From positions 2,016,001 to 2,080,000 of the forward strand of contig OY760142.1 of assembly GCA_963663225.1 (NCBI GenBank): a DNA stretch of 64,000 nucleotides, written 5' to 3'. The notes under the pieces are model-generated. The model saw only the letters and a list, made by a program, of their open reading frames with translations, did not search any database and was not told the origin of the DNA. The DNA is from Nitrospirota bacterium (GTDB lineage Bacteria; Nitrospirota; UBA9217). Made by a program: the position numbers and the translations under genes. Below, one piece after another: positions 9,234 through 48,734 of this stretch; position 1 is the stretch's first letter, and each line of letters starts with the position of its first letter.

Positions 9234-9243
9234 AGCAGGGATA

Positions 9244-10692
9244 TCAATCAGATTTTTTTAATGCTTTCCGGTATATTTTTACATACTCCCGGGCCGAGTG
9301 CTCCCAGGAAAAATCCTGCTTCATGCCGTTCTGCATCAGGCGTTTCCACGCTTTCCGTTCCTGATACAGGGTGTTGGCATGCTGAAGACAGCGCGCAAGA
9401 GCGGAGGCGGAATATTCTTCAAACAACAAGCCGGTCCCCAACCCTGTTTTTGGATTATATGCTGCAATGGTGTCTGCTAATCCGCCCGTTTTGCGGACAA
9501 TCGGAACGGTGCCGTAGCGCAGTGCGATCATTTGTCCGAGGCCGCACGGTTCATACCGGGACGGCATAAGGAACATGTCGCATCCTGCATAAATATTTTT
9601 TGCCATCTGGTCGTTGTACTGCAGTATGATTCGCATCCGGTTCTGGTAACGGCCGGCGGCCTCCGTCAGGAGGTCGTGATATTTTTTGTCACCGGTTCCG
9701 AGGATGGTCATTTGTATATCGAGCGTCATGATTTCCGGAAGAGCACCGACGAGAATATCAAGGCCCTTCTGATCAACGAGACGCGTGACCATGCCGAGAC
9801 TGGGGACATTGGATTCAGGAAGGCCGACTGCAGCTTGCAGCGTCTGCTTGCAATAGTGCTTTCCGGAAAGTCGTATCGGACTGAATGTTTTAGGAAGAGT
9901 ACGATCGTGAGCCGGATCATAAACAAGATAATCAATTCCGTTTATAATTCCGTAAAGATCCGCCGATCGCTTCGTCAGCACGCCTTCAAGCCCATAGCCG
10001 TATTCGGCTGTCTGAATTTCACGGCTATAGGTTTCACTGACCGTCGTGATAATGTCAGAATACACAAGGCCCGCCTTGAGGAAATTGATTTTATCCCAGA
10101 ATTCTATGCCCTCGTGAGTAAAGAGGTCCCATCCAAAACCGGTCAGGCGCAAGTCTTCTTTGGGGAAAAGTCCCTGATATCCCAGGTTGTGCACTGTGAA
10201 GATCGATTTTGCACGGCGCAATTCCTTGTTGTTCTGATAAATTTTTTTCAGGTAAAGCGGTGCGAGGGCGGTCTGCCAGTCATTGCAGTGAATGACGTGG
10301 GGGGTGAAGTTCAGATTGCGGCAGAGCTCCGGTATCGCGCGGGAAAAAAAGATGAATCGTTCGGCATTGTCCGGGTAATCGGCGTTTGTCGTGCCGTAGA
10401 GTTCCGGACGATCATAGAAAATATCCTTCCCGATAAAATAGACGATAACGTTTTTCCCAAGGGTTCCTTGAAAAACGTCGCAGCGCTCCTTCCACGCACC
10501 GAGCGGCACGGAAAATTCCGCAATATGCCGGAGCCCGAAGGCCGCAGGGTTTACCTGGCGGTAGCGCGGCATCACGACGCGAACATCGTGGCCGAGAGAT
10601 GCAAGCGCTATCGGAAGGCTTCCGGCAACATCAGCGAGGCCGCCGGTTTTAGCAAAAGGAGCAACTTCTGATGCGGCAAAAAGAATTTTCAT
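9244..10692 (-). CDS. glgA: Glycogen synthase
   Basis: MKILFAASEVAPFAKTGGLADV, HCNDWQT, HNLGYQG, PSRYEPCGLGQM. Start placed at the ATG overlapping the galT stop (ATGA). Confidence 0.96.
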   Translation of the reverse strand: MKILFAASEVAPFAKTGGLADVAGSLPIALASLGHDVRVVMPRYRQVNPAAFGLRHIAEFSVPLGAWKERCDVFQGTLGKNVIVYFIGKDIFYDRPELYGTTNADYPDNAERFIFFSRAIPELCRNLNFTPHVIHCNDWQTALAPLYLKKIYQNNKELRRAKSIFTVHNLGYQGLFPKEDLRLTGFGWDLFTHEGIEFWDKINFLKAGLVYSDIITTVSETYSREIQTAEYGYGLEGVLTKRSADLYGIINGIDYLVYDPAHDRTLPKTFSPIRLSGKHYCKQTLQAAVGLPESNVPSLGMVTRLVDQKGLDILVGALPEIMTLDIQMTILGTGDKKYHDLLTEAAGRYQNRMRIILQYNDQMAKNIYAGCDMFLMPSRYEPCGLGQMIALRYGTVPIVRKTGGLADTIAAYNPKTGLGTGLLFEEYSASALARCLQHANTLYQERKAWKRLMQNGMKQDFSWEHSAREYVKIYRKALKKSD

Positions 10693-11684
10693 AGCTTGAT
10701 TTCCCGCAGGAACTTGGCAGTGTCCTCGGGTGGCGTGGGGTTTATATAAAAGCCCGATCCCCATTCAAAACCGGCAACGTTTGTAAGTTTGGGCATGATT
10801 TCGATATGCCAGTGGTAGTAATCATTGCGCTCATCCCTGAAGGGGGATGTGTGGACTACATAGTTGTAAGGGGGATTCGAAAGAGCCCGGTCGTTTCTTC
10901 GCAGAATGTCCTGGAGCATCCCCGCTAGATCGTGAAAGTCTTCGTTGGATGAATAGGAAAAACAGGAGACGTGGTTTTTCGGAAGTATCCAGGTCTCAAA
11001 TGGAAACCGGGGCGCATACGGCGCGAGCGCGACAAAACGTTGCGTCTCCGATACCATTCGCGTGCCTGTTTGCATTTCCTGCCGGATGATATCGCAGAAA
11101 ATGCAGCGTTCTTTCATATCATAGTGCCGCTTGCTTCCGTCGATTTCGTCCTGCACCTGGATCGGGATAATAGGAAGGGCGATGAGTTGAGAGTGCGTGT
11201 GTTCAAGTGTGGCGCCCGCCAGAAGTCCTTCATTTTTGAAAATGAGGGTATACTGAAAGCGCTTGTCTCGCTTCAGGTCCTCCATGCGGTCGCGGTAGGC
11301 GCGGAACATGTCCTGGACAGCCTGCTGCGGCAGGGATGCCAGCGTAGCATCATGGTCGGGGCTTTCGATGATTACCTCGTGAGCGCCGATGCCGTTCATC
11401 TTGTCGAAGATGCCCTCTCCCTGTCTGTTTAAATCGCCTTCAACCTGGAGCGCCGGGAATTTGTTCGGTACGACGCGAAGCCTCCATCCAGGCCCGTTTG
11501 GCTGGCCGGAATCCCGATAGGCAAGGACCTCGTTCGGCGTCGTGCGTTCATTCCCCGCGTCGAAGGGGCAGAATCCGCCGGTTTTTTTTCCGCGCTGGTC
11601 GTGAAAATCCGTGGGCCGTTTACCGCGTTCGGATGAGATGATTACCCAGCGACCGGTAATGGGGTCTTTACGTAGCTCTGGCAT
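10689..11684 (-). CDS. galT: Galactose-1-phosphate uridylyltransferase family protein (GalT/ADP-glucose phosphorylase-like)
   Basis: MPELRKDP, CPF, VVPNKFPAL, HEVIIE, AGATLEHTHSQ (HxHxQ), HWHIEI, GFEWGSG. Confidence 0.9.
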   Translation of the reverse strand: MPELRKDPITGRWVIISSERGKRPTDFHDQRGKKTGGFCPFDAGNERTTPNEVLAYRDSGQPNGPGWRLRVVPNKFPALQVEGDLNRQGEGIFDKMNGIGAHEVIIESPDHDATLASLPQQAVQDMFRAYRDRMEDLKRDKRFQYTLIFKNEGLLAGATLEHTHSQLIALPIIPIQVQDEIDGSKRHYDMKERCIFCDIIRQEMQTGTRMVSETQRFVALAPYAPRFPFETWILPKNHVSCFSYSSNEDFHDLAGMLQDILRRNDRALSNPPYNYVVHTSPFRDERNDYYHWHIEIMPKLTNVAGFEWGSGFYINPTPPEDTAKFLREIKL

Positions 11685-11817: not shown

Positions 11818-12282
11818 ATGGCAGGTAAAATAGACAAGCTTTCAGTAACGCTCGGGAAAATTCTGCGTGCCCGTGGTCTTGGCGGCCGTCTGCATGAATA
11901 TCGCATCATCGAAAAATGGGGACAGATGGTAGGCACAGTGATTGCGCGGCATGCACAACCCCACCTGATACGGGGGAAAAGGCTCACGCTTATTGTGGAC
12001 AGCCCTGCCTGGATGCAGCAGCTTTCACTGCTCAAACAGGAAATTATTGAACAAGTGAATAAGAACCTTGGCAAGGACACGATACAAAGTATTATTTTGA
12101 AATTAGGTGAAATTACTTCACCACCGGTATCTCAAGAAAAATTATCAAAAAGCGGCAGCCTCAGCCGGGAGGATGCCGCACAGATTGAAGCCTGTCTCCA
12201 GGGAATACGCGATCCTGATGTTAGACAGGCTATCCAGAAGGTAATGGAAAAGGATTTTTTGAACAGAAAAAACATTCTGTGA
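11818..12282 (+). CDS. DUF721/DciA-family protein
   Basis: WGQMVGTVIARHAQP...LTLIVDSPAWMQQL...IIEQVN pattern typical of DUF721. Confidence 0.75.
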   Translation: MAGKIDKLSVTLGKILRARGLGGRLHEYRIIEKWGQMVGTVIARHAQPHLIRGKRLTLIVDSPAWMQQLSLLKQEIIEQVNKNLGKDTIQSIILKLGEITSPPVSQEKLSKSGSLSREDAAQIEACLQGIRDPDVRQAIQKVMEKDFLNRKNIL

Positions 12283-12572
12283 CAGAGAAACAACGACAGA
12301 ACTTCATGCTGGCAACGATGTATTATTGCTTTTGAGCGGCAATTTAGACCGGCCATAGGACATTTTAAAAACATAGAAATACTGTTTTTTTTGTTGTTTT
12401 TTTATAAAGTTGTATGCTAAAATGAACTTTAGAAAATTTTTATTGGTTTAGACTTTAAAAATATTGCCTGTTTTTATCTGCCATCAATCATTGCACCGTT
12501 TTATGGTACGTGCTTTCTTAGGGCTGAGGGCGACGCAAACAAACGATTACGACAAGCAGGAGGGGAAACAAT

Positions 12573-14345
12573 ATGCAGTGGAAGATGGTAACCGATCCTT
12601 TCGATAATATTGGCCTGTCCGCACTTTTGGCGGCAATACCTATTCTCTACCTGTTCTGGGCGTTGGCCTATGTACGTATGAAAGGGCACTGGGCTGCCAT
12701 CAGTGGAACCATCATTGCTATTCTTGTCGCCATCTTTGGCTACGGAATGCCGGTGGAGCTCGCAATGGCATCCACCTTCTTCGGGAGCCTCTTCGGACTC
12801 TGGCCGGTGGGATGGATCGTGGTCACTGCAATTTTCCTGTTGAGCCTCTCCATCAGGACTGGTCAATTTGAAATCATCAGAAACTCTCTTGCTGCGGTTA
12901 CGGCCGACCGCCGCATGCAGGCGCTGTTGATCGCTTTTTCATTCGGGGCCTTCATTGAAGGAGCCTCGGGATTCGGAACGCCTGTCGCGATTACCGGCGC
13001 AATGCTGATTGGACTCGGCTTTGAACCACTATATGCAGCCGCCATCTGTCTTCTTGCAAATACCGCCCCGGTGGCATTCGGCGTCATCGGTATCCCTGTC
13101 ACGGTTGCCAGCCAGGTTTCCGGCGTTGACCTGACGGCCCTCAGCCAGTTGGTGGGACGCACGCTGCCGTTTTTAAGTCTCATTATTCCCTTCTATATTG
13201 TCGTGCTCATGTCAGGCTGGAAAAAAGGAATGGTTGTCTGGCCTGCCTGCCTGGTGTGCGGCGGTTCATTCGCAATAACCCAATGGTATGTTTCCAATTT
13301 TATCGGCCCGCAGCTTACCGACATCGCCGCCGCCCTTGTTTCGATCGTCTGTCTTACGGTCTTCCTGCATAGGTGGCATCCGGAGGAAGTCTGGACTTTT
13401 GAACACGAGCCTGATGCAGTCAGCAGAGAGGAACTGAAGTATTCAGGGGGGCAAGTATTTAAAGCATGGGCTCCGTTTATCATAATGTCGGTTTTTGTGG
13501 CCGCCTGGGGTATCGGACCAATCAGATCGGTTCTTGATTCCTTCGGCATGGTGAAATTAGAAATCCCCATGCTCCATAATGCGGTTATTCGGGGCGGTGT
13601 TCCGATGGCGGCAGTTTACAATTTCAATATTCTGAGCGCGGCTGGCACCGCTATGCTGTTTGCGGCCATTTTTTCTATCCCCGTGATGGGCGCGTCCATG
13701 GAAACTGTTGTGAGCGTTGCCAAGGAAACCATTGCAAGACTCCTGTGGACCATGGTTACTATTGCGTCCATTCTCGGTTTCGCCTATATCATGAACTTCT
13801 CGGGAATGGCGGTTACTCTTGGTTATGCGTTCGCCCAAACAGGAATTTTCTTTCCGTTCTTCGCCGCGTTCCTGGGATGGCTGGGAGTGTTCATGACTGG
13901 GTCTGACACGTCATCCAATGCGCTGTTCGGAAAACTGCAGGAAGTTACCGCCCGGGCAATCGGTGTGGACCCTGTGGTCACCGTTGCAGCCAATGCATCG
14001 GGCGGGGTATGCGGAAAAATGATTTCTCCGCAGTCGCTTTCTGTTGCAACAGCCGCGACGCACTTGGTAGGACGGGAAGCGGATATTCTGCATTTGACGA
14101 TCAAGCACTCGATCATTCTGACCGCTTTGATTGGTGTTTTTGTGTATCTTCAGGCATACGTCCTTACCTGGATGATTCCCGTGTATGAGAAAGCCGCCGT
14201 TGCTGCGCCGGCCGCAACAGCAGCCGCTGCATCAGCGTCGCAGACGGAAGGGATCATCTATTTGTCGGTCACTCTCGGGATAACGATTATTTTGATTATT
14301 TCGGCAATCAGTGCGGCAGGCTCTCGGTCGAGATCTGCTGCCTGA
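12573..14345 (+). CDS. lctP: L-lactate permease (LctP/LldP family) with C-terminal extension
   Basis: Polytopic; FIEGASGFGTPVA, NTAPVAFG, TGSDTSSNALFG, GKMISPQS; RBS GGAGG upstream. Confidence 0.93.
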   Translation: MQWKMVTDPFDNIGLSALLAAIPILYLFWALAYVRMKGHWAAISGTIIAILVAIFGYGMPVELAMASTFFGSLFGLWPVGWIVVTAIFLLSLSIRTGQFEIIRNSLAAVTADRRMQALLIAFSFGAFIEGASGFGTPVAITGAMLIGLGFEPLYAAAICLLANTAPVAFGVIGIPVTVASQVSGVDLTALSQLVGRTLPFLSLIIPFYIVVLMSGWKKGMVVWPACLVCGGSFAITQWYVSNFIGPQLTDIAAALVSIVCLTVFLHRWHPEEVWTFEHEPDAVSREELKYSGGQVFKAWAPFIIMSVFVAAWGIGPIRSVLDSFGMVKLEIPMLHNAVIRGGVPMAAVYNFNILSAAGTAMLFAAIFSIPVMGASMETVVSVAKETIARLLWTMVTIASILGFAYIMNFSGMAVTLGYAFAQTGIFFPFFAAFLGWLGVFMTGSDTSSNALFGKLQEVTARAIGVDPVVTVAANASGGVCGKMISPQSLSVATAATHLVGREADILHLTIKHSIILTALIGVFVYLQAYVLTWMIPVYEKAAVAAPAATAAAASASQTEGIIYLSVTLGITIILIISAISAAGSRSRSAA

Positions 14346-15483: not shown

Positions 15484-15589
15484 TACTAAAATTTTTTTTA
15501 TGCAGCAGAGGTGAATAGATAATGACCGTTCATTTGCTCTGCATTATTTTTACTTAAGACACCGGCGTTTATTTTTGAAGGAGGAAGGT

Positions 15590-16699
15590 ATGGGAAAGAA
15601 AGACGAAGTCAGTAATCAGTTTCTTGAAGCTCTTGAATTCCGTGGAATCAAACGAAGAGATTTTTTGAAATTCTGCGGCGCAACCGCGGCTCTTATCGGC
15701 CTTTCCGAATTGCATGCACCTCATATTGCAGCAGCCTTGGAGAAAGCTGCGAAAAGACCGCCTGTCATATGGCTTAACTTCGGGTCCTGTTCGGGATGCA
15801 CCGAGGCTTTTGTCAAAGCATCCTATCCGACTGCAGCAGATGTCATTCTGGATGTGCTGAGCGTGAATTACAACGAGACCATCATGGCTGCGGCCGGTCA
15901 CCAGGTCGAGGAAGTGCTCGAGCAGAACAGAAAGGCGGGAGGTTATATCCTGATCGTTGAAGGCGGAGTGCCGACGAAAAAAGGATATGGCACAATGGGT
16001 GGAAAAGAGATGTTTGATGTTCTGAAGGAAATGGCCGGACCGGCCATAGCTGTGGTTGCGGTGGGCAGCTGCGCTACCGATGGAGGAGTGCCTGCAGCCA
16101 AACCGAATCCAGGCCAATACATCGGCACCGGTGCTGCTCTTGAAAAGCTCGGCATTAAGAAACCGCTTATCAACCTTGATCGTTGCGCGCAGAATCCCGA
16201 GTATCTTGTCGGTGTGGTCGTCAATTATCTTCTTCTGAAGAAACTTCCCGAGCTTGACAGCCTGGGCAGACCTACCATGTACTATGGTCAGACCATTCAT
16301 GATAATTGCGAACGCCGCGCGCATTTTGACGCCGGAAGATTTGTGGAAAAGTTCGGCACGAAGGAAGAGGCGCTCCAATATTGCCTTTATAAAGTCGGCT
16401 GCAAAGGCCCCATGGTTTATTCGGCATGCCCCAAGATTCAGGACAACGGCCATACGAGCTGGTGCGTCAAGGCGGGAGCTCCCTGTATCGGCTGCGCGGA
16501 ACGCGGCTGGGCGGATAAGTTTGCTGGATTCTATGAACCGCTTCCGGGTGTCAAGATACCTGGCCTGGGCGGCGTTGAAGCAGGCGCCGACAAGTTGGGC
16601 GCGGTTGCAGCAGTTGCAACTGCCGCAGGTATCGCAATACATGCCGTTGCAACAAAAGCTTCAGGCAGGACCAAAGGACATGACGGAGGTGAAAAATAA
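15590..16699 (+). CDS. [NiFe] hydrogenase small subunit (Tat-exported, C-terminal membrane anchor)
   Basis: KRRDFLKFC Tat motif; CSGCTE, GSCATDGG, HDNCER, CLYKVGCKGP, SWCVKAGAPCIGC; hydrophobic C-terminal helix. Confidence 0.96.
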   Translation: MGKKDEVSNQFLEALEFRGIKRRDFLKFCGATAALIGLSELHAPHIAAALEKAAKRPPVIWLNFGSCSGCTEAFVKASYPTAADVILDVLSVNYNETIMAAAGHQVEEVLEQNRKAGGYILIVEGGVPTKKGYGTMGGKEMFDVLKEMAGPAIAVVAVGSCATDGGVPAAKPNPGQYIGTGAALEKLGIKKPLINLDRCAQNPEYLVGVVVNYLLLKKLPELDSLGRPTMYYGQTIHDNCERRAHFDAGRFVEKFGTKEEALQYCLYKVGCKGPMVYSACPKIQDNGHTSWCVKAGAPCIGCAERGWADKFAGFYEPLPGVKIPGLGGVEAGADKLGAVAAVATAAGIAIHAVATKASGRTKGHDGGEK

Positions 16700-18291
16700 T
16701 GGCCAGGATTACTGTTGATCCACTTACCAGAATTGAGGGACACCTGAAGGTTGATGTCGAAATCGAAGGTGGAAAAGTAAAAGACGCATGGATGTCCGGC
16801 ACAATGTTCCGAGGTTTTGAAATTATCCTGCAGGGCAGAGATCCCCGAGACGCCTGGCATATTGTTCAACGCATCTGCGGTGTCTGTCCGACCTCTCACG
16901 GGCATGCCTCTACCATGAGCATGGACGATGCCTTCAAGGTAAAACCGCCTGACAATGGACGGATTATCAGAAATATCGTTGAAGGCGCCCAGTTTGTGCA
17001 CTCGCACATTCTGTGGTTCTATCATCTGAATGCCCTTGATTATGTTGACATTGTATCGGCACTCAAGGCGCAGCCCCGCGAAGCTTCGCTTAAAAAAGTG
17101 CAGAAGAAACTGAAGGCATATGTTGACTCAGGTCAGTTGGGGCCCTTTGCAAACGCATATTGGGGACATCCCGCATACAAACTGCCGCCTGATCTCAACC
17201 TGCTTGCAGTTGCACACTATCTCGAAGGGCTTGAAATGCAGGCAAAGGCCGCGCAGGTCAGCGCTCTGTTCGGCGGGAGAATGCCTATGACCATGACGAG
17301 CCCTCCGGGCGGCTCCAATCATGTGCCGAGCGTTGACGACCTGAAGAACTACCTGTTCCGCGTGAAAGAGCTTCAGGACTGGATTGACAATACGTTTATC
17401 CCCGATGTGCTCGCAATTGCACCGTATTATCTGGATCATGCGGCAATTGGAAAAGGACCTGCCAACTTCCTGTCATGGGGCGTTTTCGAAGATGCATCTT
17501 TTGATCCTAAGAAACGACTCTTCCCCAGAGGTGTGCTGCTTGCCAAGGACTTCCCGAAAATTCATGAGGCAAAGCCGGAGGATGTTACCGAGCACGTGAC
17601 CCGCGGATGGTATAAGAACGGCAAGCCGTTGAACCCCAGCGTCGGCGCGACCGAACCGGAGTTCACGGGATATGATGCAAACAAAAAATACAGCTGGTCC
17701 AAGGCGCCACGCCTAAACAATAGACCCATGGAGGCAGGAGCCCTTGCGCGCATCCTTGTAGCATATGCTGGCGGCAACCACACGGTGAAGAAGACCGTTG
17801 ACGATGTACTGGCAAAACTCGGACAAGCCGGAAAACCGCAGGTTCTGATGAGCGTTCTCGGGAGAATTGCAACGAGGGCCCTGGAAGCAAAGATCGTAGC
17901 GGACAATATGTACCAGTGGGGCATCGATATGATTGAAAATATATCGAAAGGAAATACCGCAGTGTACAATGACTACAAAATTCCTGATAAGGCACGGGGA
18001 GTCGGCCTTTGGGAAGCACCGCGCGGCGCCCTCGGGCACTGGATTGATATCGAAGGAAAGAAAATAAAAAATTATCAGGCAGTGGTTCCGTCGACATGGT
18101 ACTGCTCTCCCCGTGATGATAATGGGGTACGCGGCCCGGTCGAGGAAGCTCTTGTGGGCACCAGGGTTGCAAACCCCGAGAAGCCGCTCGAGATTCTCCG
18201 GGTGGTCCACTCGTTCGATCCTTGTCTTGCCTGCACCGTGCATGTGATCCATCCCGAGTCGAACCGGATCATGGCCTTTAAGGTCAGCTAA
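16699..18291 (+). CDS. [NiFe] hydrogenase large subunit (group 1a-like)
   Basis: DPLTRIEGH; L1 QRICGVCPTSH; L2 FDPCLACTVH followed by a cleavable C-terminal extension. Confidence 0.97.
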   Translation: MARITVDPLTRIEGHLKVDVEIEGGKVKDAWMSGTMFRGFEIILQGRDPRDAWHIVQRICGVCPTSHGHASTMSMDDAFKVKPPDNGRIIRNIVEGAQFVHSHILWFYHLNALDYVDIVSALKAQPREASLKKVQKKLKAYVDSGQLGPFANAYWGHPAYKLPPDLNLLAVAHYLEGLEMQAKAAQVSALFGGRMPMTMTSPPGGSNHVPSVDDLKNYLFRVKELQDWIDNTFIPDVLAIAPYYLDHAAIGKGPANFLSWGVFEDASFDPKKRLFPRGVLLAKDFPKIHEAKPEDVTEHVTRGWYKNGKPLNPSVGATEPEFTGYDANKKYSWSKAPRLNNRPMEAGALARILVAYAGGNHTVKKTVDDVLAKLGQAGKPQVLMSVLGRIATRALEAKIVADNMYQWGIDMIENISKGNTAVYNDYKIPDKARGVGLWEAPRGALGHWIDIEGKKIKNYQAVVPSTWYCSPRDDNGVRGPVEEALVGTRVANPEKPLEILRVVHSFDPCLACTVHVIHPESNRIMAFKVS

Positions 18292-18302
18292 AGGGGGACG
18301 AT

Positions 18303-18944
18303 ATGGAAAAAAACATGATCAAGGAATGGAATCGCGCATATATCATTGACCACTGGGTCAGGGTCGTCGCCATGGTGGTGCTTATTTTCACCGGTTTGTA
18401 CATCCAATGGCCGTTTATATCCGGTGGACCGGACAGTTTCATTATGGCCTGGATGCGGTTTTTCCACTTTGTTGCAGCCTATGCTTTTGTTCTGGGTCTT
18501 GTGGTTAGGGTGTATCTGGCATTTCGTTCCACGTTTGATGCGGACTGGAAGGATTTCAATGTCATTCAGGCCATCAAAAATATTCCAGACATAGCCGGAT
18601 ACTATCTGTTCATCAAGGGATCACACAAAGACTACAGAAAATACAATCCCTTGCAGGCGCTCTCGTACCTTTTTACGGGCGCGATGATAATCTTTTCCGC
18701 ACTGACCGGGTTTGCCATTTACCATGGCAATGTATTCGGGATCATTCCGGCAGAGACCGGATTCCGGTGGGTCATAACGCTTCTCGGCGGCGAGTCCTAC
18801 ACGAGGATGTGGCACATTATTACGATGTGGTACTTTATCATCTTCATGGTGATCCACGTCTACATGAGTATTATGATCAACTTTGTGAATAAAGATGGAA
18901 CATTCATGTCGATCTTCACTGGGTATAAACTGAAAAAACATTAA
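18303..18944 (+). CDS. Ni/Fe hydrogenase b-type cytochrome subunit
   Basis: Four TM helices with His ligands (DHW, FHF, WHI, IHVY) and the KYNPLQ motif. Confidence 0.93.
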   Translation: MEKNMIKEWNRAYIIDHWVRVVAMVVLIFTGLYIQWPFISGGPDSFIMAWMRFFHFVAAYAFVLGLVVRVYLAFRSTFDADWKDFNVIQAIKNIPDIAGYYLFIKGSHKDYRKYNPLQALSYLFTGAMIIFSALTGFAIYHGNVFGIIPAETGFRWVITLLGGESYTRMWHIITMWYFIIFMVIHVYMSIMINFVNKDGTFMSIFTGYKLKKH

Positions 18945-18960
18945 TACACTATGGACTCTG

Positions 18961-19464
18961 ATGAACAATGAACAGATGCGGGGAGGCATGAACATGCCTC
19001 CCCGAAATATTTTGATTCTCGGTGTCGGCAACCTGTTGCTTACCGACGATGGCTTCGGTGTTCACGTTGTCAATGCCCTCAAAAGTCACACCTTTCCCGA
19101 TACGGTAAAACTGCTTGATGCGGGCGTAGTCAGCCACCAGTTGATTCCCGTACTTCATGAAACCGATCTCCTGATTGTCGTGGACGCTGTTGAAGCCGGC
19201 GATATCCCCGGTTCGCTGTTCAAATTTTCGCCGGATGACCTGCAGTTCAAGTCGGGCCAGATGTCTTCTCTGCACCAGCTTAGTCTGACTGATGTTCTGC
19301 AGATGACAGAACTCACGGGGAAAAGGCCGGAAACGATTATTATTGCGGTTCAGCCTAAAAGCGTTTCCACCTGGTCGCTGGAATTAAGCGATGAGGTAAA
19401 GGCAGCCGTCCCAAAGGCCATAGAACTCGTGTTAAATGAGCTAAAGAAAGCCGGAATCTCGTGA
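18961..19464 (+). CDS. Hydrogenase maturation endopeptidase (HyaD/HybD family)
   Basis: ILGVGNLLLTDDGFGVH, VDAV, SLHQ; true start may be ATG 18988. Confidence 0.93.
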   Translation: MNNEQMRGGMNMPPRNILILGVGNLLLTDDGFGVHVVNALKSHTFPDTVKLLDAGVVSHQLIPVLHETDLLIVVDAVEAGDIPGSLFKFSPDDLQFKSGQMSSLHQLSLTDVLQMTELTGKRPETIIIAVQPKSVSTWSLELSDEVKAAVPKAIELVLNELKKAGIS

Positions 19465-40512: not shown

Positions 40513-40540
40513 TTGACAAAATGCATTTTTGTGTTACAAT
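40513..40540 (+). promoter_or_regulatory. Near-consensus sigma70 promoter for the precursor/rSAM operon
   Basis: TTGACA-N16-TACAAT with extended -10 TG, about 85 bp upstream of ATG 40625 (RBS GAGGT). Confidence 0.7.
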
Positions 40541-40624
40541 AAATAATAAGTAATATTATTTGTCATAAACAATTAAAATTGTCAATTAAGGCTTATTGCT
40601 TTATTTGACGATAAGAGGTTTGTT

Positions 40625-41002
40625 ATGAATGACAAAATCGAAAAGCCGGAAAAATCTATTCAAAAACAGGATGCAGATATTGAAACAAAAAAAATCAACC
40701 GGCGGGAAGCCATAAAAAACATCGCCAAGACTATTGCCGTAGCAGGCGCCTGCACGATCCCTTTTCTTTTTACACAACGTGAAAGTGAGGCCGGCAACAA
40801 GCAGTTTGCGCAAAATTCCAATTACTGCAACTATGCAAACTACAGCGACTACGCGGCCTACGGGAATTATTATAACGTGGCCAACTATGCGAACTACTAT
40901 AATGTCGGCAAAGGGCTCTACCTGAACTATGCCAATTATACAAATTATCGCGACTATATAAATTACCGGAATTACGGAGATTACGCTAACAAGTGTAGAT
41001 AG
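40625..41002 (+). CDS. Putative RiPP precursor: twin-arginine-like leader + (Tyr-x-Asn/Asp)n repeat core
   Basis: KKINRREAIK, hydrophobic stretch, then SEA|G. Core: YCN YAN YSD YAA YGN YYN VAN YAN YYN VGKGL YLN YAN YTN YRD YIN YRN YGD YAN KCR. Lies 20 bp upstream of a radical SAM gene. Confidence 0.85.
   Translation: MNDKIEKPEKSIQKQDADIETKKINRREAIKNIAKTIAVAGACTIPFLFTQRESEAGNKQFAQNSNYCNYANYSDYAAYGNYYNVANYANYYNVGKGLYLNYANYTNYRDYINYRNYGDYANKCR
40823..40990 (+). repeat. 9-nt/3-aa periodic coding repeat (TAY-NNN-RAY)
   Basis: 16 Tyr-initiated triplets with mixed synonymous codons. Confidence 0.9.
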
Positions 41003-41022: not shown

Positions 41023-42006
41023 ATGGCAAATCTTCTTCTTACTACTACGTGTGTCCGTTCCTGCCCCTACTGTTTTGCAAAAAGCGAGATGAAAGAAGCA
41101 AATCCCGGAGATGTAATGTCCTGGGAAAATCTGATTTATCTTGCTGATTTTCTGGCCCTTTCCTCGGAAAAACACATCTCTCTTCTGGGAGGAGAGCCGA
41201 CCCTTCATCCCGCTTATGTGGATTTCCTTCTGTATCTTCTTGAGCGCGGTTTTCATATAACCACATTCACCAGCGGCATTCTCTCGCAGGAGAGGCTGGA
41301 AGAGCTGAAACAGTTTATCACTCCGCTGCCCGTGGACCGTCTCAATTTTGTCTGTAATCTGAACGACCCGGAGCAAACACCGGCGCCGGAAAAAGAGCAG
41401 GCGCGGATCAGCGCGTTTCTCTCCCTGATGGGACCGTGGACCATTCCGGGATTCACCATCTACCGGACTGACTTTGATCTGAAATTCATTTTTGAAAACA
41501 TGTCCCGCTATGGCCTGCAGCGCCAGCTTCGACTCGGCATTGCCAGCCCGACTCCGGGTCATGATAACCAGTTTATCGATGTAAACCAGCATAAACAGGT
41601 TGTTGACCGCCTCTATTCTTTTAAAAAAGAAATCGAGCAATTGCGGGTACGCCCCAGCCTCGACTGCGGTTTTCCTCTCTGTGCGTTCAGCGACGAGCAA
41701 CTTGGATGGATTTACCGCCGTACGAGGCATGTGTATTTCGAGTGCGGCCCCACCATTGACATCACTCCGAACCTGGATGTTTACAATTGCTTTCCGCTTT
41801 CCCGGTTCCATAAACGGTCGATCTTTGAATTTACCACATTCAAGGAAGTCATCGATTATTACCAGAACCTGCATAACAAAGTAAGAAAAGAAATTCCCGG
41901 AATGTACGCGGAATGCGGCGCGTGTCCTCACCGGGATGAACAGCGTTGTTCCGGAGGCGGGCTCTGTAATATCATGCACCGGTTTGTTGAAAAGACCACG
42001 GTTTAA
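41023..42006 (+). CDS. Radical SAM enzyme with SPASM-like C-terminus (maturase 1)
   Basis: CVRSCPYC (CxxxCxxC), LGGEPTLHP; ECGP...DVYNCFP...ECGACPHRDEQRCSGGGLC. Confidence 0.9.
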   Translation: MANLLLTTTCVRSCPYCFAKSEMKEANPGDVMSWENLIYLADFLALSSEKHISLLGGEPTLHPAYVDFLLYLLERGFHITTFTSGILSQERLEELKQFITPLPVDRLNFVCNLNDPEQTPAPEKEQARISAFLSLMGPWTIPGFTIYRTDFDLKFIFENMSRYGLQRQLRLGIASPTPGHDNQFIDVNQHKQVVDRLYSFKKEIEQLRVRPSLDCGFPLCAFSDEQLGWIYRRTRHVYFECGPTIDITPNLDVYNCFPLSRFHKRSIFEFTTFKEVIDYYQNLHNKVRKEIPGMYAECGACPHRDEQRCSGGGLCNIMHRFVEKTTV

Positions 42007-42022
42007 GCAGGAAAAATAACGA

Positions 42023-42865
42023 ATGAATTTTCCAAACATTGTTTGTCCATATGACCAGAACCTTTTACAGCGGCTGAAAGGGTATGGAATTGTCGTCCGT
42101 GTTTCCGGTCCGTCAGAGATCATACAGGCAGCGGCCGCGTCAAAGGCCTCAACACGCAACAACCTGCTGAATGTTATCGTCGAATCACGGGAGGCGATGG
42201 ATGCTTTCAAGTTTCAGGATGAATGGCTCGGTATTCCTCTCGCTCTTTTTTTCCCAGAAATGGGAAAGTTCCGCAAATTGGGGGAAAAACTGGAGCAGAT
42301 CCGAAAACTAAAGGCCCATATTTATCTCCCGGCTGAACGTGATGAAAATCTTACTTCCTGCCGGATCCTGTCTTCACTGGGGATCACTTCCTGCCTTGCC
42401 TTCTCACAAGACAAGGCTCCAAACTGGGACTCCCTGGCGGACCTTATGACCTACGCGGTTTTTGGATCTGTCGCGCATGCCCCTCTGGAACCGTTTGCGC
42501 ATATCCGCGGCAACTATGAAGCGAAACAATACGCGGACTGGGGCTCCGTCTGTTTTGATAATCCGCGCGGATATCTGCACGTCGATGCACGGGGGCGCGT
42601 GGCACTTTCGAAGGATGAACTCGCACAGGGAATATTCATAGCCGATGATATTGCGAAGCTGAAAAATCCAATGGATTGCCCGGAATACGCGGAGCGGACG
42701 AATGTTCGGAAGCGTTTTTTTCTGGAGGACCATCCATGCACACGGTGCGAAGGATGGAAGGTCTGCTTGGGGAATTTTATGCGCGACGGAAAGCCTGTCG
42801 ATGGCTGCAGGGAGTTCTGCCGCGAGCTGCTGGTAGCGCTGGAGCAAAAAAAGCAGACCCAGTGA
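42023..42865 (+). CDS. Pseudo-radical SAM/SPASM-like accessory protein
   Basis: No CxxxCxxC motif. HVDARGRVALS resembles the SPASM hairpin with its Cys lost; C-terminal CTRCEGWKVC...GC...C. Confidence 0.6.
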   Translation: MNFPNIVCPYDQNLLQRLKGYGIVVRVSGPSEIIQAAAASKASTRNNLLNVIVESREAMDAFKFQDEWLGIPLALFFPEMGKFRKLGEKLEQIRKLKAHIYLPAERDENLTSCRILSSLGITSCLAFSQDKAPNWDSLADLMTYAVFGSVAHAPLEPFAHIRGNYEAKQYADWGSVCFDNPRGYLHVDARGRVALSKDELAQGIFIADDIAKLKNPMDCPEYAERTNVRKRFFLEDHPCTRCEGWKVCLGNFMRDGKPVDGCREFCRELLVALEQKKQTQ

Positions 42866-42887: not shown

Positions 42888-44009
42888 GTGACGACGGTAA
42901 TTTTCAAAGCGACCGAAGAATGCAATTCACGATGCGCGTACTGCGCCGTGGTGCGCAAAAACCACCTGGGCCCCACCATTATGCCCGCTGAAACGCTCGA
43001 ACGGTTTTTTGTCCGTGTCAACGCTTATCTGTCGGAACGACCTGAGGACCACCTGAAGATCATCTGGCATGGTGGAGAACCGCTGACTTTGGGGCCTGAC
43101 TATTTTTACCGCGCTCTGGAACTGCAGCAGAAACACTGCGCCGACACCTGCGGACAGATCACGCATGAGATGCAGAGCAATCTTACGCTGTTCTCGCGAA
43201 AATTCACGGATGTGTTCCGAAAAATGGGGATCACCTCATTCGGCACCAGTTACGATCCCCGTCCCGGCATCAGGGGGCCCGGAAAAACGCCAGACACAAG
43301 GGAGTATAACAGGCGGTTTCTGGATGCGCTCGCCCTCCTGGAAGAGGAAGGCTTCACGTGGGGCGTCATCTATGTGGTGACGAAGCAATCACTCCAAAAT
43401 CCTCTGGAGATTTTCCGCCTGCTTACGAACATCAATCCGGCAGGGTCTGTTATGTTCAATCCGGTGACGTTCTACAAAACAAACCCTGTGGACCTGGCCA
43501 TTACTGCGGAAGAGTTCGCCGATTTTCTCGGAGCGCTGTTTCCGTACTGGTGGGAAAATCACAACCGGTTCTCCGGTGTCGAGCCGTTTTACTCCCTGAA
43601 GCAGAACATCCTTGAGGGGGACGAGACCCTGATCTGCACCTATTCAGGAAAATGCGGAGAGACACATTTTAATGTCGGGCCGAGTGGCGCGGTCTCGCAG
43701 TGCGGCCGTTCCGCCGACTGGGGACTGATGGACAACGGATCGATCCATGAGCGGTCCCTTAGTGAAATCATGGCCGATCCGCGAAAACAGTCACTCCTGA
43801 AGCGAGCCGAGGTCTTGATAGGAGTGGACTGCGGCGGCTGCCGGTTCTGGAACATCTGCCACGGCGGATGCCCGCTCGACGCCCTGGCGGAGCAGGGAAC
43901 GATCATGCGCAAATCTCCTTCGTGCTGCATCAACAGAAAAGGATTTATAGAAAAATATTTCGAGCCGATTACCGGCATGCGCTATCGGGCGCGCGAGATA
44001 GAGTCATGA
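42888..44009 (+). CDS. Radical SAM/SPASM peptide maturase 2 (anSME-like, WHGGEP type)
   Basis: GTG start after GAGGT; CNSRCAYC, WHGGEPL, MQSN; CTYSGKC...GAVSQC...CGGCRFWNICHGGCP...SCC. Confidence 0.92.
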   Translation: MTTVIFKATEECNSRCAYCAVVRKNHLGPTIMPAETLERFFVRVNAYLSERPEDHLKIIWHGGEPLTLGPDYFYRALELQQKHCADTCGQITHEMQSNLTLFSRKFTDVFRKMGITSFGTSYDPRPGIRGPGKTPDTREYNRRFLDALALLEEEGFTWGVIYVVTKQSLQNPLEIFRLLTNINPAGSVMFNPVTFYKTNPVDLAITAEEFADFLGALFPYWWENHNRFSGVEPFYSLKQNILEGDETLICTYSGKCGETHFNVGPSGAVSQCGRSADWGLMDNGSIHERSLSEIMADPRKQSLLKRAEVLIGVDCGGCRFWNICHGGCPLDALAEQGTIMRKSPSCCINRKGFIEKYFEPITGMRYRAREIES

Positions 44010-44136
44010 ATGGAGCCAGACGATCAACCAGCCGTGCCTGTCGTTCCATGTCTTGTTCTTTTTCTTGTACTGGGTTCAGGTGCATATGCCCAGACTAGGT
44101 AGGATGCTGGTGCCATTCTCGACCAGGGAGAAAACT

Positions 44137-47100
44137 ATGAGCCGAACGCAGAATAAGGCGCTGCTTATTTTTGTTTGTACTATCGCAATCCTGCTTTGGA
44201 GCGAGACGTCCTTTTCGCAGAGCAAGGACGAGGCCGAGCGGCTTTGGGAACTCGGGGAAAAGGCATTTGCGGCCCAGAAGCACCAGGAGGCGCGTACGTA
44301 TTACGAGCAATCCCTTGCACTCTGCCGGCAGAGCAACAACCGAGAAGGCATTGCATCCAACCTGAACGGCCTCGGTGAGGTATATGAGGCACTGGGTGAT
44401 TTCAGAAAAGCGCTTTCGTATTATGAAGATGCCGTCAACACCGCGCGACAAATCAATCACAAGGACCTTATTGCGACGAACCTGTTCAATGCGGCATCAA
44501 TCTACAGTTCCGACCTTCACCAATACGACAAGGCAATGCAGCTTTTTGAAGAGTCTCTCAGGATGTTCAGGGAGCTGAACAACAAGGAAAGCACGGCCAT
44601 CGTACTGTTTAATACGGCCAAGACTTTGCAGTCCCTGGGGCGGTATGAGCAGGCGCTGTCCCTGTTCAATGAGTCCCTCAGGCTGAACCGGGAGCTAAAG
44701 AGCTTGCCGGGCATTGCGGGCAATCTTAACCTGATCGGCAATGTATACGCGCGCCTCGGGCAGTATGACAAACCGTTGCCGCTCCATGAAGAGGCGCTCA
44801 GGATAAACAGGCAACTGGCCGATCAGAAGGAGATCGCATTGACCCTTAGGAACATCGGTGATGCGTACGTCGATCTTCTTGAATACGAGAAGGCATTTTC
44901 CTATTACGAACAGGCGCTGGCAATCCAGAAAAAACAGAATATGAGGGCCGATCTCTCAATAACCCTGACCAACATGGGGGCACTGTATCAAGCCCTCGGC
45001 CGGTACGACAGGGCTCTCGCGGCATACCGAGAGTCCCTTGCCGTCAGCAGGGAAACGGATAATCGCCCCGAGATCGCGACCATCCTGAACAACATCGGCC
45101 ACACCTATGCATCGCTCGGTAAATCGGACGAAGCCCTTTCCTATTATCAGCAGGCGCTGGCGATCGAAAAACAGTTGAACAGGCCGCAGAGGGCAGCGAT
45201 TGTGTACAATAACATCGGCATGGAGCAGTTCCGCAGCGGGCAATATGAACAGGCTCTGTCTCATCTCCAGGAAGCGCTCAGGATCAGCAGACAATTGAAC
45301 ATGGTGCATGATATTACGCTCCGGTTGAACAATATCGGAGCGGTTTACCTGCGGCAGAAAAAATACCGTGAAGCGGAGGAGGTATTCCTCGAGAGAAAGG
45401 CGTTGCAGGCGAAGATTCCGAAGATCAGACTGGTGCATCCTGGCCTGGAGGAACTCTATCTTATCCGGAAACAATATGATGCGGCGCTGGCGCTGCTGGA
45501 GGATCCCGGCAGAAAGCCGACCTGGCGGTCAAACAGCGCCTATTCTCTCGAATATTACACGCATTATGGCGCGGCATTGAAAGGCAGGCTCCGGTATCGG
45601 GAAGCAGCGCAGGCACTGGAGCAGGCGGTTTCCCTGTCGGAAGAGATGCGGCTGAGGGCAGGTGAGCAGAAGAGCTTTTTTGCGGGAGGGGGGTATATCG
45701 GCCGGCTGCGTCCTCACCGCCTGCTTTCGGCAGTGCTTGCGGAACGGTCAATGAGCGGTGAACGATCCGATGCGCAGTTCGCATCCTACGGAAAGGATTT
45801 GGCGTCGGGCGCCTTCTCCGTTGCGGAACTGACGAGGGCAAGAACTCTTCTCGAAACAATGGCGGCTGCCGCGAGAAAGCAGGATAATTCGGAGCTGCCG
45901 GTTGAAATAAAGAACCGGGAAAAGTCGCTCTTCACCGCCTGGGAGGAAATCGAAAAACGGTGGGAAGCGGAGTACCAAAAAGGCGAGGCCGCCGTCAGGC
46001 GTCTCCAGAAGGAAAAAGAAAACCTGAAACGCGAAATCGACTCCCATATTGCAATGGTCAGAACAGCCTACCCGAAATATGCGGCGCTCAATTATCCAAA
46101 TCCGGACCCGGCAAACGAACTGCCACTCAAGGACCAGGAAATCCTGATCGAATATGCACTTCATGAAGACGGCGGTTATATTTTTACGGTAAGAAAAGGC
46201 GGCATACAACGAATTACCAGAATATCAATGAGTACCGAGCAGTTAACAGAGCGGATCGGGCGGTTTATGGAGGCCGTCGGAGCGGAACAAGGGAGAGGAT
46301 TTTCCATGACCCTGGCAAAAGAATTGTATGATGTTTTGTTCGCGCCGGTGGCCGCTGACGTGAAGACCGCTGATACGGTCGTTATTGTGCCGGACGGCAT
46401 CCTTGGCCTGTTGCCGTTTGAAGCCCTGGTCATGGAAACCGGCAAAAATTATACGGACAGTGTGTATGTTGGAGACCGCTACGCCATCACCTATTCCCAG
46501 TCGGCATCCGCCCTCGCACTCGGGCGGATGAGGAGCCCTTCCGGAGCGGTAAAACCGCTGTTCGCTATTGGCAACCCCGTTTTCAGCAAACAGGATCCCC
46601 GCTACATAGCGTATAAACAAGGAAAAGCCCAGCCAACACCGGCATCTCTGGCGCAAGGCGATTATGCATACAGAGCAGTTACCGTTGTACCGAAAAACGT
46701 CACAGCATCTTCTTCCGACGGGTGGGAAGAGATTGTGTTTAATCCGCTCCCGGAGACAGAGGACGAAGTAAGGGCAATTGCCGGTCTCTATAGCGTGCCG
46801 CCATTGCCGCCTGATATTCTTTTGAACATGGCAGCCACCAAGGGCAACGTGAAAAAAGCTCCTTTGAAGCAATACCGCTATCTCCATTTTGCCACGCACG
46901 CCGATCTGCCGGGGAAAGTGCAGGGAATAACAGAGCCGTTTCTGATTCTGGGGCAGGTGGAAAACGAAGGCAAGGATAACGGATTCCTGACGTTGAGCAA
47001 CGTGCTGGATCTCGGGCTTGACGCGGACATGGTGGTTTTGTCGGCATGCATGACCGGAAAGGGCAAAATCATGGAGGGAGAAGGGGTGACCAGTTTTGCA

Positions 47101-47313
47101 AGGGCGTTTTTGCATGCCGGAACCCGCAGTGTGATCGTGAGTTTGTGGGAGGTCGCGTCCCGCCAGACTGTCGAATATATGGAAGCATTTTACGGCGGCC
47201 TTAAAGCGGGCGGGACCAAAGCTGAAGCCTTGAAAAATGCCCGCAGTGTGATAAAATCCAAATATCCGGAACCCTATTTCTGGTCCGCCTTTATTTTGCA
47301 CGGAGAACGATAA
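44137..47313 (+). CDS. Secreted TPR-CHAT (caspase/HetF-associated) protease
   Basis: GGGAG RBS; signal-peptide-like MSRTQNKALLIFVCTIAILLWSETSFS; many TPRs; IVPDGILGLLPFEAL, LHFATHA (His), VVLSACMTG (Cys), SLWEV, PYFWSAF. Confidence 0.92.
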   Translation: MSRTQNKALLIFVCTIAILLWSETSFSQSKDEAERLWELGEKAFAAQKHQEARTYYEQSLALCRQSNNREGIASNLNGLGEVYEALGDFRKALSYYEDAVNTARQINHKDLIATNLFNAASIYSSDLHQYDKAMQLFEESLRMFRELNNKESTAIVLFNTAKTLQSLGRYEQALSLFNESLRLNRELKSLPGIAGNLNLIGNVYARLGQYDKPLPLHEEALRINRQLADQKEIALTLRNIGDAYVDLLEYEKAFSYYEQALAIQKKQNMRADLSITLTNMGALYQALGRYDRALAAYRESLAVSRETDNRPEIATILNNIGHTYASLGKSDEALSYYQQALAIEKQLNRPQRAAIVYNNIGMEQFRSGQYEQALSHLQEALRISRQLNMVHDITLRLNNIGAVYLRQKKYREAEEVFLERKALQAKIPKIRLVHPGLEELYLIRKQYDAALALLEDPGRKPTWRSNSAYSLEYYTHYGAALKGRLRYREAAQALEQAVSLSEEMRLRAGEQKSFFAGGGYIGRLRPHRLLSAVLAERSMSGERSDAQFASYGKDLASGAFSVAELTRARTLLETMAAAARKQDNSELPVEIKNREKSLFTAWEEIEKRWEAEYQKGEAAVRRLQKEKENLKREIDSHIAMVRTAYPKYAALNYPNPDPANELPLKDQEILIEYALHEDGGYIFTVRKGGIQRITRISMSTEQLTERIGRFMEAVGAEQGRGFSMTLAKELYDVLFAPVAADVKTADTVVIVPDGILGLLPFEALVMETGKNYTDSVYVGDRYAITYSQSASALALGRMRSPSGAVKPLFAIGNPVFSKQDPRYIAYKQGKAQPTPASLAQGDYAYRAVTVVPKNVTASSSDGWEEIVFNPLPETEDEVRAIAGLYSVPPLPPDILLNMAATKGNVKKAPLKQYRYLHFATHADLPGKVQGITEPFLILGQVENEGKDNGFLTLSNVLDLGLDADMVVLSACMTGKGKIMEGEGVTSFARAFLHAGTRSVIVSLWEVASRQTVEYMEAFYGGLKAGGTKAEALKNARSVIKSKYPEPYFWSAFILHGER

Positions 47314-47380
47314 TGCGAGGCGATTGCATCAGCATTCCTGCCGATGCGACGTTCTGTTTCAATGATCCAGGAGGACAAGC

Positions 47381-48244
47381 ATGAATAAATTTTTTATTGC
47401 GTTCCTGTTCCTTATTTTGTCGGCATCCGGTCTGCATGCGGTTCAGTCCACGATTACCGAAGCGGAAGGAACGGCGTGCATGGGAGACGACAAGTCCCGG
47501 AAGCAGACTGAAGAAGCGGCACTGACCGCGGCAAAGAAAAAGGCGGTGGAGTACGCCTCTACGTATGTCTCGAGCGAGACCACGGTGAAAAATTTCATTA
47601 CCGAAAAGGACTTTGTGTCCGCGTATGCGAACGCCTCAGTCAGGATTATTCAGGAACTGGAAAAATCCTGGTACAAGGACCCGGTGTCCGGCGATTGCTG
47701 CAAAACAAAGATCAAGGCGGAAGTGCTGCCGGATGAAAAATCGATGGCCCGACTTTCCAAGAGCTCCGCCGTGGCGGACGATCCTTCCGCTCCGCTGAAC
47801 ATAAAAGTATGGACGGACAAGAAGGAATACAAAAGCGGAGAAAAAATAAAAGTTTTTCTGAGAGGCAATAAACCGTTCTACGCGCGAATTCTGTATAAGG
47901 ACGCGGGAGGAGAATTGGTCCAGCTTCTGCCGAATCCCTATAGAAGCAGCACTTATTTCCACGGCGGCACTATTTATGAATTGCCTTCCGGTGATGACAA
48001 GTTCGATCTGGAAGTCGGCCCGCCTTTTGGCAGTGAGAATGTTGTTGTATACGCGAGCACGTCGCCCCTCGGTGAAATCAGTACCCAGACGCGAGGCGGC
48101 GTATATCAGATAAAAACACAGCCTAAAGATGTGGAAATGAAAACACGCGGCGTGGCGTTGGTGCAGAAACCTGAAGGAAAAGCTGGAACCGCCGCAGCAT
48201 CAGAATTTTTTGAAGAAAAAACAATAATAAAAACAACAAGATAA
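47381..48244 (+). CDS. Secreted protein, FlgT_N/LPP20-like N-domain + DUF4384-like C-domain
   Basis: Signal peptide ending LHA; EAEG...AAL..AKKKAVE N-domain; VWTDKKEYKSGE...VQLLPN...PPFGSE...AS domain; two TRG motifs. Confidence 0.75.
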   Translation: MNKFFIAFLFLILSASGLHAVQSTITEAEGTACMGDDKSRKQTEEAALTAAKKKAVEYASTYVSSETTVKNFITEKDFVSAYANASVRIIQELEKSWYKDPVSGDCCKTKIKAEVLPDEKSMARLSKSSAVADDPSAPLNIKVWTDKKEYKSGEKIKVFLRGNKPFYARILYKDAGGELVQLLPNPYRSSTYFHGGTIYELPSGDDKFDLEVGPPFGSENVVVYASTSPLGEISTQTRGGVYQIKTQPKDVEMKTRGVALVQKPEGKAGTAAASEFFEEKTIIKTTR

Positions 48245-48703: not shown

Positions 48704-48734
48704 AAAAGCCCCGAAGCGATTCGGGGCTTTTTTT
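48704..48734 (+). terminator. Rho-independent terminator (likely bidirectional)
   Basis: AAAAGCCCCGAA-gcga-TTCGGGGCTTTTTTT. Confidence 0.9.

Follow-up and report, generated by a model that had tools for sequence, protein, structure and literature searches.

The first 56 residues of a 125-amino-acid precursor peptide from a Nitrospirota bacterium probably form a dual-use leader, which would first dock onto the maturation enzymes and then serve as a signal for export by the twin-arginine translocation (Tat) system. The precursor is encoded in a stretch of 64,000 nucleotides (64 kb; hereafter the window), where it heads an operon of radical SAM genes. On a broader reading, for and against which we see the balance as even, the peptide represents a widespread family of Tyr-repeat RiPPs that are natively exported by Tat, in which an enzyme heterodimer binds the RR motif and gates export until the peptide is modified, and whose 10-residue tag has been grafted by nature onto a lasso leader. 

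The precursor and the anatomy of its leader

The following features of the window are referred to throughout:

15575..16699, + strand: [NiFe] hydrogenase small subunit with the canonical Tat signal K-R-R-D-F-L-K (TIGR00391, 352 bits; TIGR01409, 20 bits)
40513..40540, + strand: sigma70-like promoter, TTGACA-16-TACAAT (11/12, extended -10), a consensus match only
40612..40618, + strand: Shine-Dalgarno-like TAAGAGG of the precursor, read from sequence
40625..41002, + strand: precursor, 125 aa, heading the operon of radical SAM enzyme 1, pseudo-radical-SAM partner and radical SAM/SPASM enzyme 2
40625..40696, + strand: long charged n-region M1-I24, little conserved in the family alignment
40697..40726, + strand: helix N25-A34 with the twin-arginine (Tat-like) motif, predicted to dock on the maturase pair
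40730..40777, + strand: h-region T36-Q51, moderately hydrophobic (Kyte-Doolittle)
40778..40795, + strand: c-region: basic R52, then a signal peptidase I site, S-E-A|G, predicted by the (-3,-1) rule, cut after 40792
40793..41002 including the stop codon, + strand: core peptide, 69 aa, candidate multi-cyclophane substrate by analogy with triceptides
41023..42006, + strand: radical SAM enzyme 1, 327 aa (PF04055), predicted half of the leader-binding groove
42023..42865, + strand: pseudo-radical-SAM partner, 280 aa, predicted other half of the groove; no Pfam match, rSAM/SPASM-like fold in a structure model
42888..44009, + strand: radical SAM/SPASM enzyme 2, 373 aa; closest to the models for anSME, DynA, DarE and cyclophane synthases, none of which reaches its cut-off

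We considered M1-G57 as the leader region. The pair R26-R27 lies at the n/h boundary, inside the first ~35 residues, within N-R-R-E-A-I-K (residues 25-31). This motif fits both the TatP expression RR.[FGAVML][LITMVF] (PMC6085387) and the general twin-arginine motif Z-R-R-X-phi-phi (PMC13673990, section 6); it departs from the classic S/T-R-R-x-F-L-K consensus in having Ala where Phe stands. The n-region has a net charge of +2, counted through RR. The first-pass annotation of this DNA had called the h-region moderately hydrophobic, which holds, but had let it include K35; the uncharged stretch starts at T36 and runs for 16 residues to Q51. Its best 13-residue Kyte-Doolittle mean is 2.14. By the same measure the hydrogenase signal reaches 1.63, and four signals in the window that look like Sec signals reach 2.52-3.16. 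Basic R52 precedes S54-E55-A56|G57, by its sequence an AxA-type site. We also considered C43 (A-G-A-C) as a lipobox and rejected it, being too close to the motif and absent from L002, L003, P0003 and P0004.

A Tat-like rule was defined as the TatP expression within 35 amino acids plus at least 12 uncharged hydrophobic residues. When precursor residues 1-57 were shuffled 100,000 times, no shuffle passed this rule (the expression alone: 0.5%), and the earlier description of a Tat-like leader made up of N-R-R-E-A-I-K, an h-region and S-E-A|G is confirmed in the sequence. Only one of 45 other hand-listed window genes passed, the hydrogenase small subunit, as did 3 of 377 mechanical window ORFs, one of them a shadow ORF. 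The precursor gave no match to the Tat model TIGR01409 at E<=10 and none to Pfam at E<=1, and the Tat models of Pfam and NCBIfam (including PF10518) fail on it. An ESM Atlas search returned only unnamed clusters (0.89-0.90) of low recognition value.

Core peptide and operon enzymes

The core contains two Cys and 18 Tyr, 15 of which stand in Tyr-x-Asn/Asp, with Asn or Asp at +2. By analogy with triceptides, we infer that these repeats are modified by the operon enzymes, presumably through cyclophane-type cross-links. Enzyme 2 scored 82.6 against a cut-off of 425 for AmcB, 79.7 against 310 for GrrM/OscB, and 132 against 450 for DynA. A Pfam search found no RRE domain in any of the three operon enzymes, and the operon encodes no MNIO (DUF692) maturase, only radical SAM proteins.

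The partner lacks CxxxCxxC and has four invariant C-terminal Cys; its structure model (pLDDT 94.7) has CteB, ChlB, PqqE and anSME as nearest folds in Foldseek (E 1.4e-3 to 6e-2). We named it a pseudo-radical-SAM partner on the basis of these three properties. Sequence comparison of the partner with the PDB gave nothing convincing (two weak matches, E 0.26 and 0.44), and profile comparison with enzyme 1 found nothing (probability 0.4). Therefore, the fold assignment rests on Foldseek matches with E above 0.001.

Relatives of the cluster and conservation of the motif

We collected 108 homologues of the partner and used 27 of these in a genome scan, which gave 36 pattern matches and from them 23 loci. 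By their record labels, these belong to Thermodesulfobacteriota, Nitrospirota, Acidobacteriota, Pseudomonadota, Bacteroidota, Bacillota, Armatimonadota and Myxococcota. Enzyme 1 is present in all 23 loci and enzyme 2 in 20, being absent from, among others, both lasso hybrids (L020 and L021; see below). A precursor was found in 20 of the 23 loci, in four of them on the opposite strand and 3-6 kb off; none was found in L007 and L013, which are short contigs, or in L019. The latter encodes enzyme 1 and the partner (8998-10911) without enzyme 2 or a visible nearby precursor, and may be what is left of a former cluster or may act in trans.

The precursor set comprised 25 sequences: the 20 from the loci, the one from the window and four direct homologues, of which P0005 may belong to another family. 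Position counts are based on 23 of these, leaving out the near-copies L001 and P0002, and identity means on 19 rows, with six left out. RR is invariant (23/23); 22 of the 23 precursors have Ala at +3, 21 have Arg at +6, and the family consensus reads (T/S)-R-R-x-A-(I/L/M)-K-R-I-A. RR was likewise found in all nine full-length precursors that had been picked by their Tyr repeats alone, RR playing no part in the selection. Mean pairwise identity over the 19 rows was 0.69 in the motif, compared to 0.12 in the 10 residues that precede it and 0.16 in the h-region, and reached 0.76 at motif positions +5 to +8, where the Tat consensus fixes only Lys. The first-pass annotation had named RR conservation in homologues as a check on Tat export; the pair is indeed conserved throughout, but this result is confounded, since RR is also kept in the hybrids that lack an h-region.

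A profile of the leader retrieved 89 proteins among 1.84 billion, with a median length of 91 aa. An h-region is present in 82 of them and a lipobox-like site in 20, and 55 are rich in Tyr. We did not count RR invariance in these proteins as evidence, as this would be circular; the same applies to the conservation of a partner motif at about residues 138-146 across the loci, since this motif is the scan pattern itself. The extended RR motif is also found on unrelated lipoprotein-like proteins, for example the YghX-like P0147, and thus does not require the maturase.

Several variants of the cluster were observed. By tblastn, a GT9-like glycosyltransferase domain is encoded about 1-3 kb past the start of the partner gene in 16 of the 23 loci (L003-L006, L008-L012, L014, L015, L018 and L020-L023) and is absent from the window. 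It is usually fused to enzyme 2, in the lasso hybrids to the partner, and is free-standing in L023; its presence suggests glycosylated Tyr/Ser-rich products. A conserved gene of about 400 aa without a Pfam match is located directly upstream of enzyme 1 in 8 of the 23 loci (L006, at 7769-8956, L007 and L009-L014), with a second copy fused to GT9 in L009. In the protein P0143, a PqqD domain is followed by an internal signal-like segment with RR-x-A-L and by a tail rich in Cys, and we propose this protein as a further, RRE-linked type of twin-arginine precursor. P0128, P0134, P0141, P0144, P0150 and similar proteins, often several per group, combine the same leader with cores in which Y-G/S-D repeats are spaced out; they likely represent a further type of core in this precursor family.

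Signal architecture and the export route

Except for L020 and L021, all members of the precursor set (23/25) passed the Tat-like rule, and the h-region is kept as a property after the motif in 23 of 25 precursors despite its low identity of 0.16. Among the 18 precursors without a lipobox, a permissive pattern, applied without a null, placed a small-x-small site 28-31 residues past the first Arg in 14; the same scan gave no clear cleavage site in L010 and L011. Lipobox endings occur in L015, L017 and L018 and, in a looser form, in L023 and P0005, alternating in the family with SPase I-like ones. Directly downstream, L015 and L018 encode Lnt; an Lgt gene is found in L022 and near L015.

TIGR01409 matched 10 of 23 precursors at E<1, two of them above the cut-off, leaving 21 of 23 below it. 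A basic c-region residue is present in 15 of 23 precursors, the net charge of the n-region is zero or negative in 10 of 25, and the family mean of h-region hydrophobicity (1.93) is only intermediate. As read from the sequences, the long n-region, the position of RR, the less hydrophobic h-region and the basic c-region suggest the Tat rather than the Sec route. Most Tat signals can drive Sec export of Sec cargo (PMC13673990).

The absence of a transporter, pointed out earlier for this cluster, was borne out: tblastn with an ABC peptide exporter detected no peptide-type ABC exporter in the 64-kb window, and in the family close matches only beside the two lasso loci, L020 and L021. The same search gave distant ATPase-domain matches 4-7 kb away in L010, L012 and L021. 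A MacB/FtsX-type permease is encoded just upstream in L015 and L018.

We saw no tat genes in the 64-kb window or in the loci of the relatives, and a scan for a TatA-like pattern was empty. The KRRDFLK-bearing hydrogenase small subunit, from which the presence of Tat in the host had been argued before, is real, and its signal scores above the TIGR01409 cut-off. The gene belongs to a membrane-bound [NiFe] hydrogenase operon (15575-19464) encoding the small and large subunits, a cytochrome b and a maturation protease. By what is established for group 1 [NiFe] hydrogenases, its small subunit, large subunit and cytochrome b genes are an indirect sign that the host has Tat.

On the same strand 3' of the cluster, at 44053-48244, are genes for a TPR-CHAT (caspase-like) protein and a DUF4384/FlgT_N protein, both with Sec-looking signals, followed by a strong terminator-like hairpin at 48704-48731. 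The TPR-CHAT and DUF4384 genes are common only to the window and its nearest relative, L001, and with 1 of 23 loci we rejected them as core parts of the cluster.

Two further variants concern the end of the leader. L022 has two tandem precursor copies (7841-8865 and 12780-13898), the first apparently frameshifted; its leader, like those of P0119, P0125, P0129, P0149 and P0186, closes with a Cys that is not part of a canonical lipobox, and with the Lgt gene 3' of the cluster L022 possibly uses a dedicated lipidation route. In L023, from Bacteroidales, there is a second copy of the SPASM enzyme (11959-13038), and the precursor has an acidic run right after the Cys, which we take to resemble the lipoprotein export signal of Bacteroidota.

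Docking of the motif on the maturase pair

The precursors of L020 and L021 carry the full RR motif, which leads directly, without an h-region, into a lasso-type leader followed by a core of 16 residues. Genes for an ABC exporter, a lasso B1-B2 fusion and a lasso cyclase are followed by the precursor, enzyme 1 and a partner fused to GT9 (L021, 4214-11680; L020, 121-5490, where the contig stops 1.3 kb after the partner start). The hybrid precursor gene has promoter-like and RBS-like sequences and is conserved above its downstream intergenic DNA; the L020 and L021 genes differ by eight synonymous and four non-synonymous codons. A third hybrid of RR motif and lasso leader is P0158. In a tree of enzyme 1, the hybrids form one clade inside a group of signal-bearing systems, which indicates a single fusion event. 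The hybrid is probably a natural chimeric leader for a new, tailored lasso peptide. Since RR is kept in precursors that are unable to use Tat, its conservation alone is no proof of Tat export.

We predicted the complex of enzyme 1, the partner and precursor residues 14-57. The RR helix was placed between both enzymes with a score of 0.81, compared to 0.09 for the best control, the controls being ones without an ordinary Tat signal; swapping enzyme 1 lowered the predicted docking to 0.09. Among solved pairs, 116 of 157 attain a value of 0.81, and among mismatched pairs 2 of 215; these counts are only rough here, as a three-chain job with its own alignments falls outside this calibration. The runs share at least 49% of contacts, with a partner pLDDT of at least 56. 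The predicted interface comprises K23-A38, and Ala29 is packed against Y39 and F268 of enzyme 1, which in the model would explain why Ala replaces Phe. Conservation at the interface exceeds the average in the columns of enzyme 1 (0.86 vs 0.68, p about 0.01, taken over all residues, not surface only) but not in those of the partner (0.61 vs 0.56, p 0.22). In the window and L001, a single lineage, Arg at +6 is changed to Asn, and the predicted contact residue 271 is Thr, not Asp/Asn. No similar complex was found in the PDB by sequence.

The model thus supports binding of the RR helix by the enzyme 1/partner pair, as a prediction. The earlier suggestion that the leader doubles as the enzyme-recognition sequence gains support from the hybrids and from this predicted binding, and may prove more important than the export signal itself: conservation and portability of the motif are seen in the sequences, and docking is predicted. 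An RR->KK exchange is predicted to hit docking as well as export and therefore cannot alone prove Tat export in the full system.

A dual-use leader and its alternatives

In the dual-use scheme, the RR-x-A-I-K helix would, in the cytoplasm, sit in the groove between enzyme 1, which lacks an RRE, and the partner. The enzymes would then cross-link or otherwise modify the Tyr-x-Asn/Asp/Ser repeats, giving a bulky product that is ill-suited to Sec. While bound to the enzymes, the RR motif would be masked from TatC; after release, motif and h-region would send the product to Tat, in a manner akin to REMP chaperones. Signal peptidase I would cleave at S-E-A|G, and in the lipobox relatives the product would become a lipoprotein. 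Neither a dedicated exporter nor a leader protease would be necessary. The earlier proposal of modification in the cytoplasm, Tat export of a rigid peptide and release by signal peptidase thus finds partial support.

The RR helix could instead serve enzyme recognition only, with the h- and c-regions sending the product through Sec in the ordinary way, like the signals of bufferins and DAG-RiPPs. In favour of this, L020, L021 and P0158 retain RR although Tat cannot export them, the predicted enzyme interface accounts for both RR and Ala, the scores of Tat HMMs are weak, and Sec-signal RiPPs are established (PMC11626156, PMC12636315). We nevertheless consider this reading unlikely: a signal of 56 aa is Tat-like when its n-region is long, its RR pair marks the n/h boundary, its h-region is less hydrophobic than those of the Sec-looking signals in the window and its c-region is basic, and bulky or macrocyclic peptides are said to suit Sec poorly (PMC11626156, PMC5686179). 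The opposite simplification, a plain Tat signal with enzymes that recognise the Tyr-repeat core, would make the motif of the lasso hybrids a relic. It agrees with the single clade formed by the hybrids, with a bufferin signal peptide that is dispensable for modification (PMC11626156), and with the presence of R-R-x-A-(I/L) on unrelated exported proteins (MauA chain 3c75_L, a weak match, and the model N-termini of Iro and MelC1). A plain Tat signal would hardly account for a motif identity of 0.69, or 0.76 at +5 to +8, for Ala instead of Phe at +3 in 22 of 23 precursors, for the fall in predicted docking from 0.81 to 0.09 with enzyme 1 replaced, or for the motif being retained in three hybrids, and we hold it to be improbable.

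There is, we believe, only a slight chance that the product is not released by signal peptidase at all, the hydrophobic segment being an uncleaved membrane tether or having no role in export, or the processing being done by a neighbouring protease such as TPR-CHAT. The TPR-CHAT peptidase gene 3' of the cluster looks intact, and L010 and L011 are without a clear cleavage site; against this, CHAT and DUF4384 occur only in the nearest relative (1/23 loci), and AxA-like and lipobox endings alternate across the family and co-occur with Lnt/Lgt. The dual-use leader remains our preferred explanation.

Comparison with known systems

Leaders of CXXX-repeat precursors may carry a similar RR motif, in line with the weak matches given here. 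These peptides (TIGR04117, PF27846) share a repeat core with the present family, built of Cys instead of Tyr repeats. The L022 leader weakly matches residues 1-46 of TIGR04117 (E 0.17), and an ESM Atlas lead pointed to CXXX-repeat peptides (0.85, 14% family share); among the matches listed, none linked the CXXX maturase models to the operon enzymes. Our literature search found no paper on the export of CXXX-repeat peptides.

The core resembles those of triceptides (YxdB, XncB, OscB) and dynobactin (DynA) in its aromatic-x-Asn/Asp/Ser motifs (PMC11002830), and the SPASM enzyme is nearest to DynA and cyclophane synthase models. It differs in that these models score below cut-off and in having up to ~15 motifs per core, two extra proteins of radical SAM fold, often GT9, and a signal-peptide leader. 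As to membership in the triceptides, the core has the motif (15 of 18 Tyr), whereas the enzyme falls outside the curated cyclophane-synthase families.

Signal-peptide RiPPs have been demonstrated only recently, with Sec examples (PMC11626156, PMC12636315). Bufferins, oxazolins and chryseobasins likewise have a signal peptide as RiPP N-terminus, no dedicated exporter and a core freed by signal peptidase; they use Sec and MNIO enzymes and their signal is dispensable, whereas the signal described here is of twin-arginine type, is served by radical SAM enzymes and is the predicted dock (PMC11626156). DAG-RiPPs follow the lipoprotein pathway, similar to those relatives that have a lipobox Cys and adjoining Lnt/Lgt genes; their MNIO enzymes recognise a C-terminal motif, whereas the window precursor has a SPase I-type site, and the words 'Tat' and 'twin' do not occur in the available text of that paper (PMC12636315). 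Like REMP chaperones, which are substrate-specific cytoplasmic proteins, the maturase pair would hold a twin-arginine signal while the mature part is finished; REMPs act in cofactor insertion into redox enzymes, whereas the predicted binder here is a catalytic radical SAM heterodimer and its substrate a peptide (PMC13673990). In the available part of a paper on lanthipeptide display, Tat export is only speculated on and preliminary attempts were unsuccessful (PMC5686179), and the available part of a review on leader removal contained no passage on signal peptidase or Tat (PMC10885120). Our literature search found neither a native Tat-exported RiPP nor the present precursor family; subscription journals and supplements lay outside its scope, and an earlier mention is possible.

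Implications

We regard the feature as real. It would be a variant of signal-peptide RiPPs with a twin-arginine leader and radical SAM enzymes, and an undescribed way of making and shipping a peptide. Of interest in their own right are the chemistry of enzyme 1, a partner that is catalytically incomplete and the GT9 domain often present in systems with Tyr-rich cores. The natural lasso hybrid separates docking from export and thereby provides a ready-made test system. If the RR motif is the dock of the maturase, this would link Tat proofreading to RiPP biosynthesis and define a short, portable recognition tag. A native Tat route, if true, would account for the export of heavily cross-linked peptides in the absence of a dedicated transporter, and would point to other transporter-less clusters whose precursors pass for mere Tat-signal proteins.
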